NCBI GenBank assembly: GCA_030390025.1
Contig: JASTWF010000327.1
Coordinates: 372,001 to 436,000, forward strand
DNA from: Squalus acanthias
Taxonomy: Eukaryota
DNA length: 64,000 nt
Direction: 5' to 3'
The notes below the pieces were generated by a model. The model saw only the letters and a program-made list of their open reading frames with translations, ran no database searches and was not told the DNA's origin. Positions within the stretch are counted from its first letter, which is position 1. Each line of letters begins with the position of its first letter. Positions 3,770 through 62,932 of this stretch are shown here, one piece after another. The position numbers were made by a program, and so were the translations under genes.

Positions 3770-4360
3770 TTACCCAGACTACAGGAGCCCAGTGCGCAGG
3801 CGCGGTAGCGGCTGGTATATTGAGCATGCGCAGTGCGGTACTGGAGACGGACACGCTGGAGAGGAACAGCAGCTGGAAGCGTGATTCCGCAGTGAGTAAG
3901 AATCCGGGGGCACAGGGGAGTAATGGACCGGCAGGTAGGTGGGGAGGCTTCATAAACAACTGGGGTAGGCCGCAAGCCCCGAATAATAACCTGAAGGTCC
4001 CGTGTTTGCAGCTGCGGGGATTTCTTCCGCTAACAGGCCCAGGTTAACGGCAGTCATCTTTGTAAAGGAGGGCGGAAAGTTTCAGTGCGACGCCATTTTG
4101 ATTCAGTGTGTAACAGAGTGCATGCGCGGCCATCTTAGTATAGGAACTTAGAGTGGGCGGGGCTTCAGTGTCTGCTTCCAACCGGGTCCCAGTGCCCGGG
4201 AGAGACAATCATTGAACATCAGAACACAGTAGGAGCAGGAGTCGGCCAGACGGGGCTTCAGGGTCCCAGTGCCCGGGAGAGAAAATCAAAGTCTCAGTTA
4301 TTTTATTCTCACTCTCCACGCGGGATTCCTCACCATCTCTTCTGAAGGCGCTGGTAAGTG
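3770..4360 (+). promoter_or_regulatory. CpG-island promoter/exon-1 module, paralogous to 45850-46290; no adjacent coding exon
   Basis: NRF1-like gcatgcgc/tgcgcaggcgc, YY1-like gccattttg/gccatctt, GC box gggcgggg and ZNF143-like actacaggagcccag. Candidate donor ctg|gtaagt at ~4354. Long matches to 45895-46270. Confidence 0.6.
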
Positions 4361-18714: not shown

Positions 18715-18972
18715 CTACACCAGTGGGTGTAGAACTGAACCCAGCCAGAGTAGTGGGACAGTTTGGAAATGGTGCGATGGGTTTGGATTTCAGCACAGGG
18801 ATGAGGGAGAGTGTGTGCGACTGGGATTTAGTTTTAGAGGAACAAGAGAAAGTAATGTTCCATATAAATGCGAATTGTCTGTTCTGAATTTCTATCCTGT
18901 ACTTCCAGTGATGACTTTTGTAAACTCCTTTTACAGGGGATTAGAAGGGGAGGATTTACAGACCAAACAAAC
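18715..18972 (+). pseudogene. Remnant of a ZNF-gene intron end and coding-exon start, with no fingers
   Basis: Matches 46810-46945 and 55910-56000, including ctccttttacag|gg; cut off by CR1 at ~18975. Confidence 0.65.
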
Positions 18973-24844: not shown

Positions 24845-25040
24845 GTGTGATTGACGGTAGCTTCCAACCAATAGGGAGCGAGCGGGGCGGGGCTGGAGGA
24901 GCGAGCCGGCGGGTCCTCCAACCAATCGGGGAGCCCGAGGGGCGGGACTAGCGCCGGCTGATTGTCTGATCCGCAGGGCAGCGAGTTTCTCCAGTCCCTT
25001 GTTCAGGGCCCGGGGCCAGGGGAGGCTGTGGGCCTTTATT
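24845..25040 (-). promoter_or_regulatory. CCAAT/GC-box promoter core, paralogous to 38520-38700 and 54836-54940
   Basis: tgattgacgg..ccaatagg..ggggcgggg..ccaatcggg..ggggcggga. Confidence 0.7.
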
Positions 25041-38049: not shown

Positions 38050-38700
38050 AAAGTCCGCATGCGCCGCTCTTGTTGGGGTTTAGAACGCGCATGCTCGCGA
38101 GCAGCAGTGTCCCAGACCAGCTGCTAGTGCGCATGCTCGGGGACAGCAGAGTCCCAGACCAGCTGCTAGTGCGCATGCTCGGGGGCAGCAGAGTCCCAGG
38201 ACCAGCTGCTAGTGCGCATGCTCAGGGGCAGCAGAGTCCCAGGACCAGCTGCTAGTGCGCATGCTCAGGGGCGACACACTGGGTAACGGTCGAAGAGTCG
38301 GAATTACCGGCGGAAAGCGAGTTTTCTCAGCTAGAGGGACGAGCGGAGAGGGAAGGAAATAAATAACGGTAAACACAAACCTGGGAGTCCGAGGGTCCCG
38401 GGAAGCGAACGGAACGGATTCAGCCTCGCGGAGCGGGTCAGACTTCCTCAGCGACACGTGACCGGGGCCCGCGGCCTCAGTGACGTCATCGCATCCGGGA
38501 CACGTGACCCGGTCCACAGCCTGATTGACGGGCGCTTCTGACCAATAGGGAGCGAGCGGGGCGGGAGCAGCGAGCCGGCGGCGAGTCCTCCAACCAATCG
38601 GGGAGCCCGAGGGGCGGGACTAGCGCCGGCTGATTGTCTGATCTGCAGGGCAGCGAGTTTCTCCAGTCCCTTGTTCAGGGCCCAGGGGAGGCTGTGGGCC
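38050..38700 (-). promoter_or_regulatory. CpG-island promoter/exon 1 of gene C
   Basis: 42-43-bp repeats containing gcgcatgc (38085-38270). E-boxes cacgtg at 38455 and 38501, CRE tgacgtca at 38481, CCAAT/GC core at 38520-38700. Confidence 0.7.
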
Positions 38701-42700: not shown

Positions 42701-44021
42701 AGTGGTATCAAGTCACTTAGAAAATCATAACATGATTAGGCAGAGTCAACATGGTTTTATGAAAGGGAAATCATGTTTGACAAATTAGAGTTTTTTGAGG
42801 AAGTAACTGGCAGGGTAGATAAAGGGGAGTCAGTGGATGCAGTATATTTGGATTTCCAAAAGGCATTCGATAAGGTGCCACATAAAAGGTTATTACACAA
42901 GATTAGGGCTCATGGGGTTGGGGGTAATATAGTAGCATGGATAGAGGATTGGTTAATGGACAGAAAACAGAGAGTAGGGATAAACGGATCTTTTTCAGGT
43001 TGGCAGGCTGTAACTAGTGGGGTGCCGCAAGGATCAGTGTTGGGGCCTCAGCTATTTACAATCTACATTAATGACCTAGATGAAGGGATCGCGTGTAATG
43101 TATCCAAGTTTGCTGATGATACAAAGCTAGGTGGGACAGTAAGCTGTGAGGAGAACACAAAGACTCTGCAAAGACTACGTGAGTGGGCAGTAAGGTGGCA
43201 GATGGAGTATAATGTAGGGAAATGTGAGGTTATTCACTGGTAAGAAGAATAGAAAAACAGATTATTTTTTAAATGGTGAGAAACTTTCAAATGTTGGTGT
43301 TCAGAGAGATTTGGGTGTCCTCGTGCAAGAAACACAGAAAGCTAGCATGCAGGTACAGCAAGCAATAAGGAAGGCAAATGGCATGTTGGCCTTTATTGCA
43401 AGGGGGTTGGAGTATAAGAGTAAGGAAGTCTTGCTACAATTGTACAGGGCCTTGGTGAGACCACACCTGGAGTACTGTGCACAGTCATGGTCTCCTTATC
43501 TAAGGAAGGATATACTTGCCTTGGAGGCGGTGCAACAAAGGTTCACTAGATTGATTCCTGGGATGAGAGGGCTGTCCTATGATGAGAGATTGTGTAGAAT
43601 GGGCCTATGCTCTCTGGAGTTTAGAAGAATGAGAGGTGATCTCATTGAAACATACAAGATTCTGAAGGGGATTGACAGGGTAGATGCTGAGAGGTTGTTT
43701 CCCCTGGCTGGAGTGTCTAGAACGAGGGGGCATAGTCTCAGGATAAGGGGTTGGCCATTTAAGACTGAGATGAGGAGGAATTTCTTCACTCAGAGGGTTG
43801 TGAATCTTTGAATTCTCTGCCCCAGAGGGCTGCGAATGCTGAGTCTTTGAGTATATTCAAGGCTGAGATAGATAGATTTTTGGACTCTGGGGGAATCAAG
43901 GGATATGGAGATCGGGCAGGAAAGTGGAGTTGAGGTCGATGATCAGCCATGATCTTATTGAATGGCAGAGCAGGCTCGAGGGGCCGCATGGCCCACTCCT
44001 GCTCTTATTTCTTATGTTCTT
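39355..44021 (+). mobile_element. Full-length decayed CR1: 5' UTR with 54-bp monomers, ORF1, ORF2, 3' tail
   Basis: ORF1 from 39995 (CxxC..CxxC, leucine zipper, esterase). ORF2 ~41120-43933 has several stops and frameshifts. ttcttatg tail. Confidence 0.92.
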
Positions 44022-52280: not shown

Positions 52281-53104
52281 ATAAGAACATAAGAAATAGG
52301 AGCAGGAATAGGCCAGTAGGGCCCTCGAGCCTGCTCCGCCATTCAATAAGATCATGGCTGATCTTGGGCTCAAAGCCACTTCCCTGCCCTCTCCCCAGAA
52401 CCCTTCACTCCCTTATCTTGCAAAAATTTGTCTATCTCCACCTTAAATGTATTTAATGACCCAGCCTCCACAGCTCTCTGGGGCAGAGAATTCCACAGAT
52501 TTACGACCCTCTGAGAGAAGAAATTCCTCCTCATCTCAGTTCTAAAAGGGCGACCCTTTATTCTGAGACTGTGCCCCCGAGTTCTAGATTTCCCCACGAG
52601 GGGAAACATCCTCTCTGCATCTACCTTGTCGAGCCCCTTCAGTATCTTATATGTTTCAATAAGATCACCTCTCATTCTTCTAAATTCCAATGAGTATAGG
52701 CCCAGCCTGCTCAACCTTTCCTCATAAGTCAACCCCCTCATCTCTGGAATTAACCTAGTGAATCGTCTCTGAACTGCCTCCAATGCAAGTATATCCTTCC
52801 TTAAATAAGGAGACCAAAACTGTACGCAGTACTCAAGGTGTGGTCTCACCAATACCCTGTACAGTTGTAGCAGGCCTTCCCTGCTTTTATACTCCAACCC
52901 CCTTGCAATAAAGGCCAACATTCCATTTGCCTTTTTGATTACTTGCTGTACCTGCATGCTAACTTTTTGTGTTTCATGCACAAGGACCCCCAGGTCCCTC
53001 TGAACTGTAGCATTTTGTAATCTCTCTCCATTTAAATAATAGTTTGCTTTTTTATTTTTCCTGCCGAAGTGGATAACCTCACACTTTCCCACATTATACT
53101 CCAT
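52281..53104 (-). mobile_element. 5'-truncated CR1 inserted in sense orientation into the coding exon of gene E
   Basis: ORF2 C-terminus, 3' UTR and ttcttatg tail joined to gttcacc. Confidence 0.93.
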
Positions 53105-53956
53105 CGGCCTCTCCCCGGTGTGAGTGCGTTGGTGTCTCAGCAAGTGGGGTGAACGAATGAATCCCTTTCCACACACGGAGCAGGTGAACGGTCTCTCCCC
53201 AGTGTGAGTGCGGTGGTGTGCCAGCAGATCATTTTTCCTTTTAAAGGTCTTCTCACAGTCAGAACATTTAAAAGGTCTCTTATCAGTGTGAACAAGTTGG
53301 TGTGTAGTGAGGTGGGATGAAGAAGTGAATCCCTTCCCACACACGGAGCAGGTGAACGGCCTCTCCCCAGTGTGAACTCGCTGGTGTCTCAGCAGATCCC
53401 TTGTGCTTTTGAAGCTCTTCTCACAGTCAGAACATTCTAAAGGTCTCTTCTTGGTGTGAACAAGTTGGTGTGCAGTGAGGTTGGCAGACTCTGTGAATCC
53501 CTTCCCACACACGGAGCAGGTGAACGGCCTCTCCCTGCTGTGAGTGCGTTGGTGTGCCAGCAAGTTGGATGAACGAGCAAATCCCTTCGCACACACGGAG
53601 CAGGTGAATGGCCTTTCCCCTGTGTGAGTGCGTTGGTGTGCCAGCAAAGAATTTCTGCTTTTAAAGCTCTTCTCACAGTCAGAACATTTAAAAGATCTAT
53701 CATCAGTGTGAACAAGCTGGTGTGTAGTGAGGTGGGATGAAGAAATGAATCCCTTCCCACACACAGAGCAGGTGAATGGCCTCTCCCCGGTGTGAATGCG
53801 CTGGTGTTCAGTGAGGTTCCATGAACGAGTGAATCCCTTCCCACACACGGAGCAGGTGAACGGTCTCTCCCCGGTGTGACTGCGCCGATGAGTTTCCAGC
53901 TCAGATGGGCAAGAGAATCCCTTCCCACAGTCCCCACATTTGCACGGTTTCTCCAT
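52370..53956 (-). CDS. Chimeric ORF of gene E: 10 C2H2 fingers fused in frame to 244 aa of CR1 ORF2 C-terminus (528 aa; 551 aa from ATG 54025)
   Basis: Kozak accATGg at 53956; junction HTGERP|MEYNVGKCEV; no stop until 52370. Expression is unknown. Confidence 0.7.
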   Translation of the reverse strand: MEKPCKCGDCGKGFSCPSELETHRRSHTGERPFTCSVCGKGFTRSWNLTEHQRIHTGERPFTCSVCGKGFISSSHLTTHQLVHTDDRSFKCSDCEKSFKSRNSLLAHQRTHTGERPFTCSVCAKGFARSSNLLAHQRTHSRERPFTCSVCGKGFTESANLTAHQLVHTKKRPLECSDCEKSFKSTRDLLRHQRVHTGERPFTCSVCGKGFTSSSHLTTHQLVHTDKRPFKCSDCEKTFKRKNDLLAHHRTHTGERPFTCSVCGKGFIRSPHLLRHQRTHTGERPMEYNVGKCEVIHFGRKNKKANYYLNGERLQNATVQRDLGVLVHETQKVSMQVQQVIKKANGMLAFIARGLEYKSREGLLQLYRVLVRPHLEYCVQFWSPYLRKDILALEAVQRRFTRLIPEMRGLTYEERLSRLGLYSLEFRRMRGDLIETYKILKGLDKVDAERMFPLVGKSRTRGHSLRIKGRPFRTEMRRNFFSQRVVNLWNSLPQRAVEAGSLNTFKVEIDKFLQDKGVKGSGERAGKWL

Positions 53957-54166
53957 GGTGCGGGTGTCCTTGTGTCTCTCCAGGTTGGACAATCGGTTGA
54001 AGCCTCGTCTAAACACAGAACACATATATGGTTACTCCCCAGTAATCTAATTTAATCATGACAATATTTTCATTTTGACAATATTTTCATTTTAATTCCG
54101 GACTTCTAAAACCCCCTTTCCCACACTCGGTCCTTCCCTATAAATTGTCCCCGTGTAATATTTCTC

Positions 54167-54347
54167 CAGGTTATAGTCTAACAGTTTTATTTGAAATCAC
54201 AAGCTTTCTGAGCGCTGCTCCTTCGTCAGGTGAAGGAGCAGCACTCCGAAAGCTTGTGATTTCAAATAAAACTGTTGGACTATAACCTGGTATGGTGCGA
54301 CTTCTCACATTTGTCCACCCCAGTCCAACACCAGCATCTCCACATCA
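54167..54347. mobile_element. Penelope-like insertion with an inverted 5' segment and a minimal hammerhead motif
   Basis: 11-bp target-site duplication taatatttctc (54156-54166 and 54348-54358); ~59-bp inverted arms at 54166-54224 and 54232-54290. Confidence 0.75.
54197..54233 (-). ncRNA. Minimal type I hammerhead ribozyme motif, possibly inactive
   Basis: UCAC CUGACGA A GGAGC AGC GCUCA GAAA GC UU GUGA: core present, stem I UCAC/GUGA, palindromic AAGCUU; one mismatch at the base of stem II. Confidence 0.6.
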
Positions 54348-54371: not shown

Positions 54372-54580
54372 GACGCTCCCTGACTAGTCTCCACTTCTCC
54401 TCCATTTCCAGACGCTCCCTGACCAGTCACCATTTCTCCTCCATTTACAGACGCTCCCTGACCAGTCCCCATTTCTCCTCCATTTACAGACGCTCCCTGA
54501 CCAGTCTCCATTTCTCCTCCATTTACAGACGCTCCCTGACCAGTCCCCATTTCTCCTCCATTTACAGACGCTCCCTGACT
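54372..54580. repeat. 39-bp tandem repeat, about 5 copies
   Basis: Unit gacgctccctgaccagtccccatttctcctccatttaca. Confidence 0.92.
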
Positions 54581-54677
54581 CACTTCCTGTCTGTCCCGGA
54601 GTTTGGGGCTTTGTTGAGATTCGGGCCGGAGCGAAACGGGAACCCGCGGGTGGAGGCGGATAATGTTCACTGATCTT

Positions 54678-55078
54678 ATAATGGGGCCTGGGGCCGCACT
54701 CGGGGTGTGTGCAGCCCGCGTCCCCCCGGGGTTTATTAACCCGCTCCCTGAGCTCTCTCACCTGATGTGTCAGCGGCTGCTGCCAAGGTCCGCGCATGCT
54801 CAGCTCACCTTCCGTTGTTCAGGTTTAAAGGTCAAGCCCCGCCCCTCACACACTCCGATTGGTTGGAGGACCCGCCGCCCGCTCGGTCCTCCAGCCCCGC
54901 CCCGCTCTTCCTATTGGTCCGGAGCTCCCGTCAATCACCCGGGCAGTGTGAGCTGAGCATGCGCGGACCTTGGCAGCAGCCGCTGACACATCAGGTGAGA
55001 GAGCTCAGGGAGCGGGTTAATAAACCCCGGGGGGACGCGGGCTGCACACACCCCGAGTGCGGCCCCAGGCCCCATTAT
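54678..55078. promoter_or_regulatory. Palindromic promoter between genes E and F: 131-bp perfect inverted arms around a 139-bp CCAAT/GC core
   Basis: Arms 54678-54808 and 54948-55078 are exact reverse complements. Each carries gcatgcgc and a cag|gtgaga donor. Confidence 0.85.
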
Positions 55079-55296
55079 TAAAACACTCAACATTATCCGC
55101 CTCCCCACAACTACCCGCCAGTTTAAGACACAAACTCCGGGACAACCAGGAAGTGCTGGGAAATCCCCAGCGAGTCAGGGTGCCGGACTCTCAGGAGGCT
55201 CCACACCGCTGGCTGCTCCTGTGTCAGTGATCTCCCATCAGATTATGTGCGTCTGCTGTGTGTGTGTGCCCGAAGTTGTTCATAAGGTGAGGAACG

Positions 55297-55910
55297 AGTG
55301 AGTGTCGAACTGAACCCAGTCAGAGTCAGCACATTCAGGGGAGGAGAGGGTGGGGAACCAGTGAGTGTAGAACTGAACCCAGCCAGAGTCAGCACCTTCA
55401 GGGGAGGAGAGGGAGAGGGAGGAGAACCTGTGAGTGTAGAACTGAACCCAGCCAGAGTCAGCACCTTCAGGGGAGGAGAGGGTGGGGAACCTGTGAGTGT
55501 AGAACTGAACCCAGCCAGAGTCAGCACCTTCAGGGGAGGAGAGGGAGAGGGAGGGGAACCTGTGAGTGTAGAACTGAACCCAGCCAGAGTCAGCACCTTC
55601 AGGGGAGGAGAGGGAGGGGAACCAGTGAGTGTAGAACTGAACCCAGCCAGAGTCAGCACCTTCAGGGGAGGAGAGGGAGAGGAACCAGTGAGTGTAGAAC
55701 TGAACCCAGCCAGAGTCAGCACCTTCAGGGGAGGAGAGGGAGAGGAACCAGTGAGTGTCGAACTGAACCCAGCCAGAGTCAGCACCTTCAGGGGAGGAGA
55801 GGGAGGGGAACCAGTGAGTGAACTGAACCCAGCCAGAGTCAGCACCTTCAGGGGAGGAGAGGGAGGGGAACCAGTGAGTGTCGAACTGAACCCAGCCAGA
55901 GTCAGCACCT
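55297..55910. repeat. ~60-66-bp tandem repeat, about 10 copies, in the intron of gene F
   Basis: Unit gtgagtgtagaactgaacccagccagagtcagcaccttcaggggaggagaggg..aacca; single partial copy at ~18720. Confidence 0.93.
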
Positions 55911-56083
55911 AGAATTGCCTGTTCTGAATTTCTATCCTGCACTCTCAGTCATGTCTTTTGTAAACTCCTTTTACAGGATATTAGAAGGGGAGGATTTGCA
56001 GATGGGAAACTCAAACCAAACATCACGTCAAGATCTGACAGAGGCACTCGATACATCTGGACGTGAATATTATCGGCCTTTGA

Positions 56084-56179
<96 letters not shown>

Positions 56180-56230
56180 TGAGGCTTCAACTGATCATCC
56201 AACCTGGAGAGTCACAAGGACACCCGCACC

Positions 56231-56821
56231 ACGGAGAAACCGTGGAAATGTGGGGACTGTGGAAAGAGATTCACTTACCCGTCTGAGCTGAAAACCCATC
56301 GCTACCGGCACACCGGGGAGAGGCCGTTCACCTGCTCCATGTGTGGGAAGGGTTTCACTAATTCATCCCACCTTCTGAGACACCAGCGAGTTCACACTGA
56401 CGAGAGACCTTTTAAATGCTCCAACTGTGCGAACTGCTTTAAAAGCTCTGAGGAACTGATTCAACACCAGCGAGTTCACACTGACGATAAACCATTCAGT
56501 TGCTGTCAATGTGGGAAGAGATTCAGGCAGTCATCCAATCTCATTGTACACCAACGCACTCACACTGGGGAGAGACCGTTCACCTGCTCCGTGTGTGAGA
56601 AGAGATTCATTAAATCATCCAACCTGCTGACACACCAACGAATTCACACCGGGGAGAGGCCGTTCACCTGCTCCGTGTGTGGGAAGGGATTCACTTGTTC
56701 ATCCACCCTGCTGACACACCAGCGAGTTCACACTGGGGAGAGGCCGTTCATCTGCTCCGTGTGTGGGAAGGGATTCAATCAGTCATCCAACCTGCTGACA
56801 CACCAGCGAGTTCACATGTGA
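56231..56821 (+). pseudogene. ZNF gene F: 7 fingers; family start ATG changed to ACG (next in-frame ATG at 56339)
   Basis: Acceptor at ~55976; accACGg at 56231 is in frame and open to TGA 56821; family 3' UTR lacks its AATAAA. Confidence 0.7.
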
Positions 56822-58825: not shown

Positions 58826-59682
58826 GGTTCCCCTCCAAGGAGGACACACACCCTCTTTACCTGGTTCCCCTCCAAGGAGGACACACACCCTCTTTACCTG
58901 GTTCCCCTCCAAGGAGGACACACACCCTCTTTACCTGGTTCCCCAAGGAGGACACACACCCTCTTTACCTGGTTCCCCTCCAAGGAGGACACTCGCCCTC
59001 TTTGCCTGGTTCTCCAAGGAGGACACTCACCCTCTTTACCTGGTTCCCCAAGGAGGACACACACCCTCTTTACCTGGTTCCCCTCCAAGGAGGACACTCG
59101 CCCTCTTTACCTGGTTCCCCAAGGAGGACACTCGCCCTCTTTGCCTGGTTCCCCAAGGAGGACACACACCCTCTTTGCCTGGTTCCCCAAGGAGGACACT
59201 CGCCCTCTTTACCTGGTTCCCCAAGGAGGACACTCGCCCTCTTTACCTGGTTCCCCTCCAAGGAGGACACTCGCCCTCTTTGCCTGGTTCCCCTCCAAGG
59301 AGGACACACGCCCTCTTTGCCTGGTTCCCCTCCAAGGAGGACACTCGCCCTCTTTGCCTGGTTCCCCTCCAAGGAGGACACACGCCCTCTTTGCCTGGTT
59401 CCCCTCCAAGGAGGACACTCACCCTCTTTGCCTGGTTCCCCTCCAAGGAGGACACACACCCTCTTTGCCTGGTTCCCCTCCAAGGAGGACACTCGCCCTC
59501 TTTGCCTGGTTTCTCTCCAAGGAGGACACTCGCCCTCTTTGCCTGGTTCCCCTCCAAGGAGGACACTCGCCCTCTTTGCCTGGTTCCCCTCCAAGGAGGA
59601 CACACACCCTCTTTACCTGGTTCCCCTCCAAGGAGGATACTCGCCCTCTTTGCCTGGTTCCCCTCCAAGGAGGACACACGCC
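58826..59682. repeat. 34/37-bp minisatellite, about 24 copies
   Basis: Unit ggttccc(ctc)caaggaggacacacaccctctttacct. Confidence 0.96.
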
Positions 59683-59984
59683 TCAGTCCGTCTCCACCAC
59701 TCGCACTGCACATGCTCAGAGCACAGTCCAGTGATGAGCCGGCGCACTAGGATCGGGTTGTCATTGATAGGGCCCATTCTGCCGCGTCGCGAATTCTGGG
59801 TAAAGAACTAAAAACCTGAATTGGTGAAGAGAAAATTCATTTATTTGTCGTCCGATTGAGATTGGGCCATTTTTCACTGCCTGTAGGGGTGACACTAAGT
59901 TGCCCCAGTGACACCAGACGGGAGCAAAAACCATTAAGGCAAGTGCCCCAGTGCCCCACAGATATTAAACACACAATAACGGGT

Positions 59985-61809: not shown

Positions 61810-62932
61810 CTGGGTCATCTTCTAGATCTTACAAACTGTTATGGATAGCAAGCTGGTCACAAAACAGAAAACAGAGAGTAGGGGTTGGGAGTGGCAAAAG
61901 GTGGGAAGTGGTGTTCCACAGGGATTGGTGCTGGGACCACTGTTATTCATAAACGATTTGGACTCGGGAATCAGAAGAACAATTTCAAAGTTTGTCGATA
62001 ACACCAAATTGGGAGTTAGAGTTAATACTGAAAGAAGACAAAATGCAAGAAGACATTAATAAATTTCAGAATGGGCGTGTAATTGGCAAATGAATTTCAC
62101 TGTAGATCAGTGTGAGGTGGTGTGTTTTGGTGGGAAGAATAAGGAGGCCACTCACTACTTGGAGAAGGGGGTGAAATTGGGTTGCTTTGTGCCTCCCGCG
62201 ATATTCAGCGGGAGGTTAGCGGCGGCGGTAGCCGGTAGCTCCCCGCGGCACTGCACCGCCAGCAATGACGTCATCGCCATGCGCAGCACCCCGGCTGCAA
62301 CCTTGGGTTGTGACCCCTGACCTATCGCCGGACGATATGTCCGACAGGGTCAAGGGTCGTTCCTGCAGCCGCGGCGACGCCACTTAAAGGGCAGGTGTCG
62401 GGCGGCAACTTTTTATTTTGGCCGACTGCCAGCACCTGCCCCCTTCCCCTTTCTTCTTCGGGGTGTCGGCCACGATCGCTCAGCCCGGCGCTCCTCTTGA
62501 TCCGACACCCCGCTCCCCGGTGGTCCAGCAGGGCCCCGGTGTGAGCAGTGCTAGGCCCCTCCCCTTTAATCAGGGAGGGAGGTCTGCTATGACACGGTGC
62601 TATGTGCCGACGGGCGTGGTGCTGTTGCACGAAGTGTGCGAAATTCACTGGTAGCGCCCCAAGAGGGAGGGCAGCGCTTCCAATAGCACCCCGCCTCCTG
62701 CTTGGGGCGCTACCACTGAATTTAATGCGCAGGGGCGCTAACTTTTTTGGGGCGCTAAAATTAGCTCCGGCGACGTTAGCGACCCAAAGGGGGCGCCACC
62801 AAATTTCTCCCCCTGAGAGTCTAAATGGGCTGGAGGAGCAGAGGAATCCAGGGATACAGATACACAAATCACTAAAAGTAGCGACACACGTTAATAAGGC
62901 CATTAAAAAAAAAAGCACTGGGGTACATTCCT
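61810..62932 (+). mobile_element. CR1 fragment paralogous to 18975-19490, interrupted by a MITE
   Basis: Shared junction caaactgttatggata; KVGSGVPQG. Confidence 0.8.
62167..62813. mobile_element. GC-rich non-autonomous DNA transposon (MITE), PIF/Harbinger-like termini
   Basis: Terminal inverted repeats gggggtgaaattgg and ccaaatttctccccc; absent from the paralogous site near 19360. Confidence 0.7.

Follow-up and report, generated by a model that had tools for sequence, protein, structure and literature searches.

Identical inverted arms around a promoter-like core between divergent shark zinc-finger genes: a probable inherited head-to-head cassette

Can a promoter that lies between two divergent genes be turned around in a vertebrate genome? 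The question is raised by a 64-kb stretch of DNA (hereafter the window) that holds a cluster of poly-C2H2 genes amid LINE fragments and minisatellites. Between two of these genes, E and F, a pair of inverted arms encloses a short promoter-like spacer. The first-pass annotation of this DNA had proposed that the arms were made identical by a recent conversion, that the core of the spacer points toward F, and that flipping it would offer a choice between two zinc-finger (ZNF) genes with identical first exons. The features on which our analysis is based are the following (positions are those of the window; a slash marks the cut of a splice-like site).

24847..24949, minus strand: paralogous core upstream of gene B, inverted, 84% alike, armless
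38522..38621, minus strand: paralogous core upstream of gene C, inverted, 83% alike, armless
52370..54031, minus strand: gene E, a 553-codon open frame with C2H2 fingers; 9 zf-C2H2 stretches (Pfam); ATG at RTMEK (53956)
54372..54579, minus strand: 39-bp minisatellite, 5.3 copies, beginning just behind the donor-like site at 54584
54580..54677, minus strand: E-type outer flank; donor-like GAA/GTGAGT after 54584; contig cover in sequencing runs X2, X9, X13 and X17
54678..54808, minus strand: left (E-facing) arm, 131 bp; NRF1-like site at 54792-54799; donor-like CAG/GTGAGA after 54762
54809..54832, minus strand: E end of the spacer, subfamily-specific, ending in a donor-like AAG/GTGAGC at the arm boundary
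54809..54947, no strand assigned: whole spacer, 139 bp, with two CCAAT boxes, two GC boxes and TTTAAA
54833..54947, plus strand: family-wide CCAAT/GC core, high-copy in all three DNA runs
54948..55078, plus strand: right (F-facing) arm, 131 bp; NRF1-like site at 54957-54964; donor-like CAG/GTGAGA after 54994
55079..55290, plus strand: F-type outer flank; donor-like AAG/GTGAGG after 55286
55291..55910, plus strand: 63-bp minisatellite, 9.7 copies, beginning just behind the donor-like site at 55286
55969..56821, plus strand: gene F, C2H2; 6 zf-C2H2 stretches (Pfam); acceptor at 55976/55977; open frame 56195-56821

The exact reverse complementarity of the arms over all 131 bp, noted in the first-pass annotation, was borne out at the same coordinates by a computation of inverted repeats, and the match ends abruptly on both sides (0 bases of extension inward or outward). 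In a census of exact inverted repeats of at least 20 bp with arms within 3 kb of each other, taken over the whole window, this pair was the longest of 12; the runner-up measured 44 bp, and the chance expectation of an exact inverted pair of 131 bp is ∼1e-65. We found no second close copy of the arm elsewhere in the window. The near-identical inverted repeats enclose the segment 54809-54947, a geometry of the inversion type. Both arms carry the NRF1-like and CAG/GTGAGA donor-like sites that had been annotated, with GCATGCGC at 54957(+) and 54799(-) and CAGGTGAG at 54992(+) and 54764(-). The outer motif of the arm is common to the promoters of genes A, B and D, with weak scores. Beyond the arms, homology continues in the patchy, diverged form described earlier: an alignment of the outer flanks gives 80% identity across 88 columns, with one patch identical at 16/16 positions (54652-54667 and 55089-55104) and another 87% alike (54581-54611 and 55125-55155). 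Three further donor-like sites, absent from the first-pass annotation, accompany the arms. Two lie beyond them, at 54584(-) and 55286(+), and one falls exactly on the E arm boundary (54809/54808), where the F-side counterpart reads only AGT/GTGAGC. The 39-bp and 63-bp minisatellites are unrelated to each other, yet each starts a few bases from a donor-like site.

Does the core point toward one of the two genes? The CCAAT boxes of the spacer lie on the minus strand (54858-54862 and 54913-54917), the GC boxes at 54837-54845 and 54895-54903, and TTTAAA at 54826-54831; an ETS-like GGAAG is also found in the core, and the NRF1-like sites flank it. Read toward E, the elements follow a tidy order of CCAAT, CCAAT, GC box and TTTAAA. 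Divergent gene pairs are enriched in NRF-1, CCAAT, Sp1 and GABP motifs (PMC2077898); the motifs of this core make up most of the divergent-promoter set, and the predicted divergent 5' ends lie less than 1 kb apart. The core had also been placed upstream of genes B and C, and positions 54835-54938 are indeed common to these promoters (84% and 83%), although neither has the 26 bp of the E end. The B and C cores have 87 further bases in common, on the side pointing away from their genes. As to the annotated direction toward F, the F-facing join is in fact the majority form in the family; directionality of the core itself is unsupported, because its motifs are those of the divergent-promoter set and because the extra 87 bases of B and C face away. 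Firing of the CCAAT/GC core in both directions, which the first-pass annotation had named as the simpler alternative, is likely, and we prefer it to a one-way core. The spacer folds no better than its shuffles (z 0.20). The F junction resembles the promoter of gene D and the E junction that of gene C (each likeness was equalled by 1 of 400 shuffles, with 12 tests made), a pair of likenesses that hints weakly in both directions as to which junction is ancestral. Metagenome scans returned 0 matches with an arm motif and 1 match with a core motif, L001, which spans only 22-23 bases and was dismissed as chance.

We then considered the two genes themselves. E and F have C2H2 frames on opposite strands and are 77% alike in their 5' coding parts or exons, and E is nearer to gene D (82%) than to F. 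Judged by these identities E and F are old paralogues, and a recent whole-gene inverted duplication is ruled out by the 77% exon identity. The fingers of gene E run in frame into a LINE 3' fragment (HTGERP followed by MEYNVGK, junction near 53105), which is 81% alike to 43197-43933 and which we take to be of CR1 type. The idea of a useful choice between two ZNF genes is doubtful: the family acceptor motif, present at A, B, C, D and F, is missing at E, and the leader of F has in-frame stops and reads RTTEK (ACG) where E has RTMEK (ATG), so that both genes look damaged. Nor could we establish that the first exons are identical, since a stronger donor-like site lies on the E arm boundary; if transcription of E started inside the spacer, the arm would be an intron for E. 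Between the E flank and the E coding part lies a hairpin (54166-54290) with 29-bp perfect arms and 91% identity over 125 bp, which we presume to be an inverted Penelope-type tail. All five Rfam matches, each under the gathering score, fell on this hairpin at 54154-54302 (miRNA); the same search gave no match on the arms or the spacer.

Is the arrangement peculiar to this locus? Contigs of four runs, chosen from 21, were aligned to 54580-55290: X2 and X17 (organism A, the closest), X9 (organism D) and X13 (organism E). X2 was taken as DNA and X17 as RNA, both of which are guesses, and the raw-read run X21 was left out because low single-locus cover was expected from its 2,000 million letters read. 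The contig view listed 32 of 3,490 pieces. Pieces that reach at least 31 letters to either side of the left junction were present in X9 (record 25, 54744-54862) and X13 (record 2, 54754-54895). The right junction was bridged in X9 (record 31), X13 (record 4) and X17 (record 15), and the E flank-arm boundary in X13 (record 1). X2 showed depth at both junctions, neither of which was bridged by 31 letters on both sides among the pieces listed. No listed piece of X2, X9, X13 or X17 spans flank, arm and spacer together, or both arms; a flip of the whole spacer would leave no trace in contigs shorter than flank, arm and spacer combined. For organisms D and E, we infer from overlapping pieces of different copies that a single molecule carries the two arms.

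The summed depth of arm and core reached 1e4 to 1e5, compared with 4.5-11.7 for the longer low-depth contigs listed, and the summed depth of the E end was ∼290-2950 times that of the same contigs. Depth is not copy number; a rough floor, assuming up to 31-fold overlap, would be ∼9-95 copies. The F end of the core was deeper than its E end by 5.0, 4.8 and 8.8 times, and the E-end depth of the spacer was of the same order as in the E-type flank, at ratios of 0.27-0.76. In X2, X9 and X17, loose ends ahead of 54833/54834 show that the core also has other left neighbors. The 5-9-fold excess of depth at the F-facing end makes most copies look one-armed, with the mirror arrangement as a subfamily. 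Taken together, these contigs suggest a very large subfamily whose standard 5' module consists of the core and the right arm, the mirror arrangement being an old subset present in many copies.

Several other features of the contigs were recorded. Cover in X17 has gaps at 54796-54819 (the left junction) and at 55108-55179, to which we gave no evidential weight. Record 16 of X17 (54966-55078) runs continuously across the CAG/GTGAGA site and neither confirms nor excludes a donor there. The end of X17 record 9 at 54584 was considered as a hint of splicing and rejected, given that DNA record 18 of X2 stops at the same place. In X13, many contigs step back by ∼34-36 bases within the arm (54720-54755 and 55001-55038), a short tandem duplication variant of organism E. 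One contig of X9 (depth 15, 64 letters on its shorter side) switches strand within the spacer, from 54816 to 54896, near the inner GGAGGACC/GGTCCTCC hairpin. Unless the alignment is to blame, the core of this copy in organism D has been inverted in part, and the module does rearrange.

Why, then, are the arms identical? Identity of 131/131 in the arms, compared with 80% in the flanks and 77% in the exons, defines a sharply bounded tract, and the probability that 131/131 identity survived from the gene duplication, at the identity of the flanks, is ∼1e-13. Since E and F are old paralogues and their flanks are 80% alike, the arms must have been homogenised later. Of the recent conversion between arms proposed in the first-pass annotation, it is the homogenisation that stands. 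A recent, local event is not supported, given that the arm is near-uniform in X2 and the junctions are shared with two other organisms. In X2, 10 places vary at ≥5%, none of them in the arms and 6 in the spacer, a contrast that is modest (P 0.02), and at 2-3 sites, all outside the arms, the window departs from the majority letter of X2. A recent event at the locus is not required, because arms of the family would match by descent alone with a probability of ∼0.16-0.30.

Organisms D and E offered a further view of the arms. Other letters were found at arm sites 55022 and 55046, with depths of 113,884 and 105,862 in X9, 319,755 and 53,215 in X13, and 0 and 1,543 in X2. Because a contig lying wholly within the arm matches two places, and the rule by which it is assigned is uncertain, the shares of these letters in X9 and X13 may be only ∼40-60%. 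The letters at 55022 and 55046 are species-biased, as homogenisation or turnover in each lineage would make them, but left and right arms are indistinguishable in the contigs. Their lower word shares suggest that D and E are successive outgroups; in that case both arms of the window would carry derived letters and would have been homogenised after the split, subject to the ambiguous placing of contigs that fit both arms. Selection on the 5' leader together with recent amplification could alternatively produce uniform arms.

We therefore weighed what kind of element this is. Our preferred reading, which we hold to be probable, is an inherited, multiplied head-to-head ZNF cassette with converted 5' ends, a two-way promoter and a mostly fixed orientation. 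Gene conversion from arm to arm, or template switching, would have made the 5' ends of two old paralogues identical; the mirror layout would then have been multiplied by duplication, both of its junctions recurring in organisms D and E; and the CCAAT/GC core between the genes would drive transcription both ways. In this reading the mechanism and date of conversion, the two-way transcription and the mostly fixed orientation are what we infer. Rare heritable flips of the core are plausible beside it. In a tentative alternative, which we consider plausible yet unlikely as the main account, crossover or template switching between the arms occasionally flips the spacer in germ cells, as an unregulated polymorphism among copies, individuals or species that may bias E/F output. 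Against it stands the need of vertebrate crossover for roughly ≥200 bp of identity. Such flips are permitted by the arm-spacer geometry, and the many copies provide many chances, one rearranged spacer having been seen in X9. Template switching in yeast homogenises arms and inverts spacers where both are far shorter (PMC8604942), and inversion recurs between homogenised inverted repeats in yeast, in the FF region (PMC9731477), and in humans (PMC3961182). However, the arms are short compared with the 4-kb FF arms, and with a two-way core a flip would matter little. We regard as rather improbable the wider proposal of a flipping bank, in which tens to hundreds of shark cassettes carry an asymmetric 139-bp core that flips between homogenised first-exon arms, in germ line or soma, with promoter-orientation alleles as the outcome.

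A regulated gene switch is unlikely, and its programmed somatic form, in which a one-way core is flipped in cells to choose E or F, seems barely credible to us. All that speaks for it is the geometry, together with the fact that the core is joined to the F side in the majority form. No recombinase was recognised by eye among the 62 frames of at least 150 codons in the window, where only zinc-finger, LINE and repeat-derived frames could be made out (the Pfam scan covered genes E and F), and the arms consist of gene 5' sequence rather than short recombinase sites. The damaged look of both genes and the two-way character of the core motifs also count against such a switch, and the term "invertible promoter" was not found in the literature searched. 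Could the 401-bp unit instead be a promoter-carrying transposon of the fold-back or MITE-like kind, its arms being long terminal inverted repeats? Target duplications of TTA/TAA are typical of PIF/Harbinger elements, and a TTA is present on each side if the arms are taken from 54679 to 55077; the high copy number would also suit a transposon. But the flanks are inverted homologues of each other (80%) rather than an interrupted target, the outer motif of the arm recurs in promoters A, B and D (if weakly), and the two ends are unequal, most copies being one-armed, all of which makes a transposon very unlikely. We consider it just as improbable that the perfect identity is an artefact of assembly or polishing, one arm having been replaced by the sequence of the other or of the family consensus. 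A high-copy family can mislead polishing, but both junctions and both flank types occur in independent runs, and the window retains letters absent from the X2 majority at 54813 and 55219, which argues against a plain consensus overwrite.

Among known systems, the closest case is that of primate SIGLEC11 and SIGLEC16, head-to-head paralogues in which gene conversion in each lineage keeps the upstream region and the first exons nearly identical (PMC5701461). The likeness lies in divergent paralogues with converted 5' ends and a diverged remainder. The SIGLEC genes lie ∼9 kb apart, with converted tracts of ∼2 kb at one locus, whereas in the shark cassette the gap of 139 bp is itself a promoter-like core, the tract measures 131 bp, and the junctions are multi-copy across species. 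The Saccharomyces FF region, in which inverted repeats of gene copies are homogenised within species and 4-kb arms surround 24 kb with demonstrated inversion (PMC9731477), resembles the cassette in having an inverted repeat made of gene copies and provides a model of recurrent, unregulated inversion; the shark arms are 30 times shorter, and inversion is only a candidate. Human inversions of the HsInv type are alike in that a crossover between the arms would swap the upstream sequence of two paralogues, but they involve larger repeats (7-kb duplications, a 782-bp near-identical block) and are genotyped polymorphisms. Vertebrate bidirectional CpG promoters (NRF-1, CCAAT, Sp1, YY1, GABP; PMC2077898) share most motifs with the cassette, whose predicted starts likewise lie less than 1 kb apart. 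In bacterial systems such as fimS and hin, as in the cassette, a promoter-like element lies between inverted repeats; unlike those systems, the window shows neither short recombinase sites nor a recombinase. The bacterial invertible promoters rely on short recombinase sites and a dedicated recombinase, and vertebrate bidirectional promoters normally join unrelated genes without mirror arms. A description of this cassette was not found in the literature searched, which included parts of the whale shark genome paper and lay mostly outside subscription journals.

The modest point of these data is that a huge shark zinc-finger family can apparently spread by pairs of genes that stand back to back, share one tiny promoter and keep their 5' ends alike. 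Short-spaced 131-bp inverted repeats in many copies would also provide a natural test of short-arm conversion and inversion in the vertebrate germ line. Should flips that affect expression exist, vertebrates would have one of their few examples of a promoter inverting between paired genes. If a flipping bank existed, orientation alleles, heritable and perhaps somatic, would shift output between paired transcription factors, and vertebrates would possess an equivalent of invertible promoters that works without a recombinase.

Other parts of the window showed related sequence. The promoter region of gene C (38087-38272) contains a 43-bp tandem repeat of 4.4 copies, each with an NRF1-like GCGCATGC. 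Promoter-like copies akin to the promoter of gene D lie at 3777-4203 (66%) and 59680-59786 (77%); they face no nearby finger exon and are possibly orphan promoters. At 18929(+), the family splice-acceptor motif and the bases that follow it occur without a finger exon behind. Finally, an imperfect 84-bp palindrome (76%) is located at 62641-62723, within the CpG-rich block 62100-62800.
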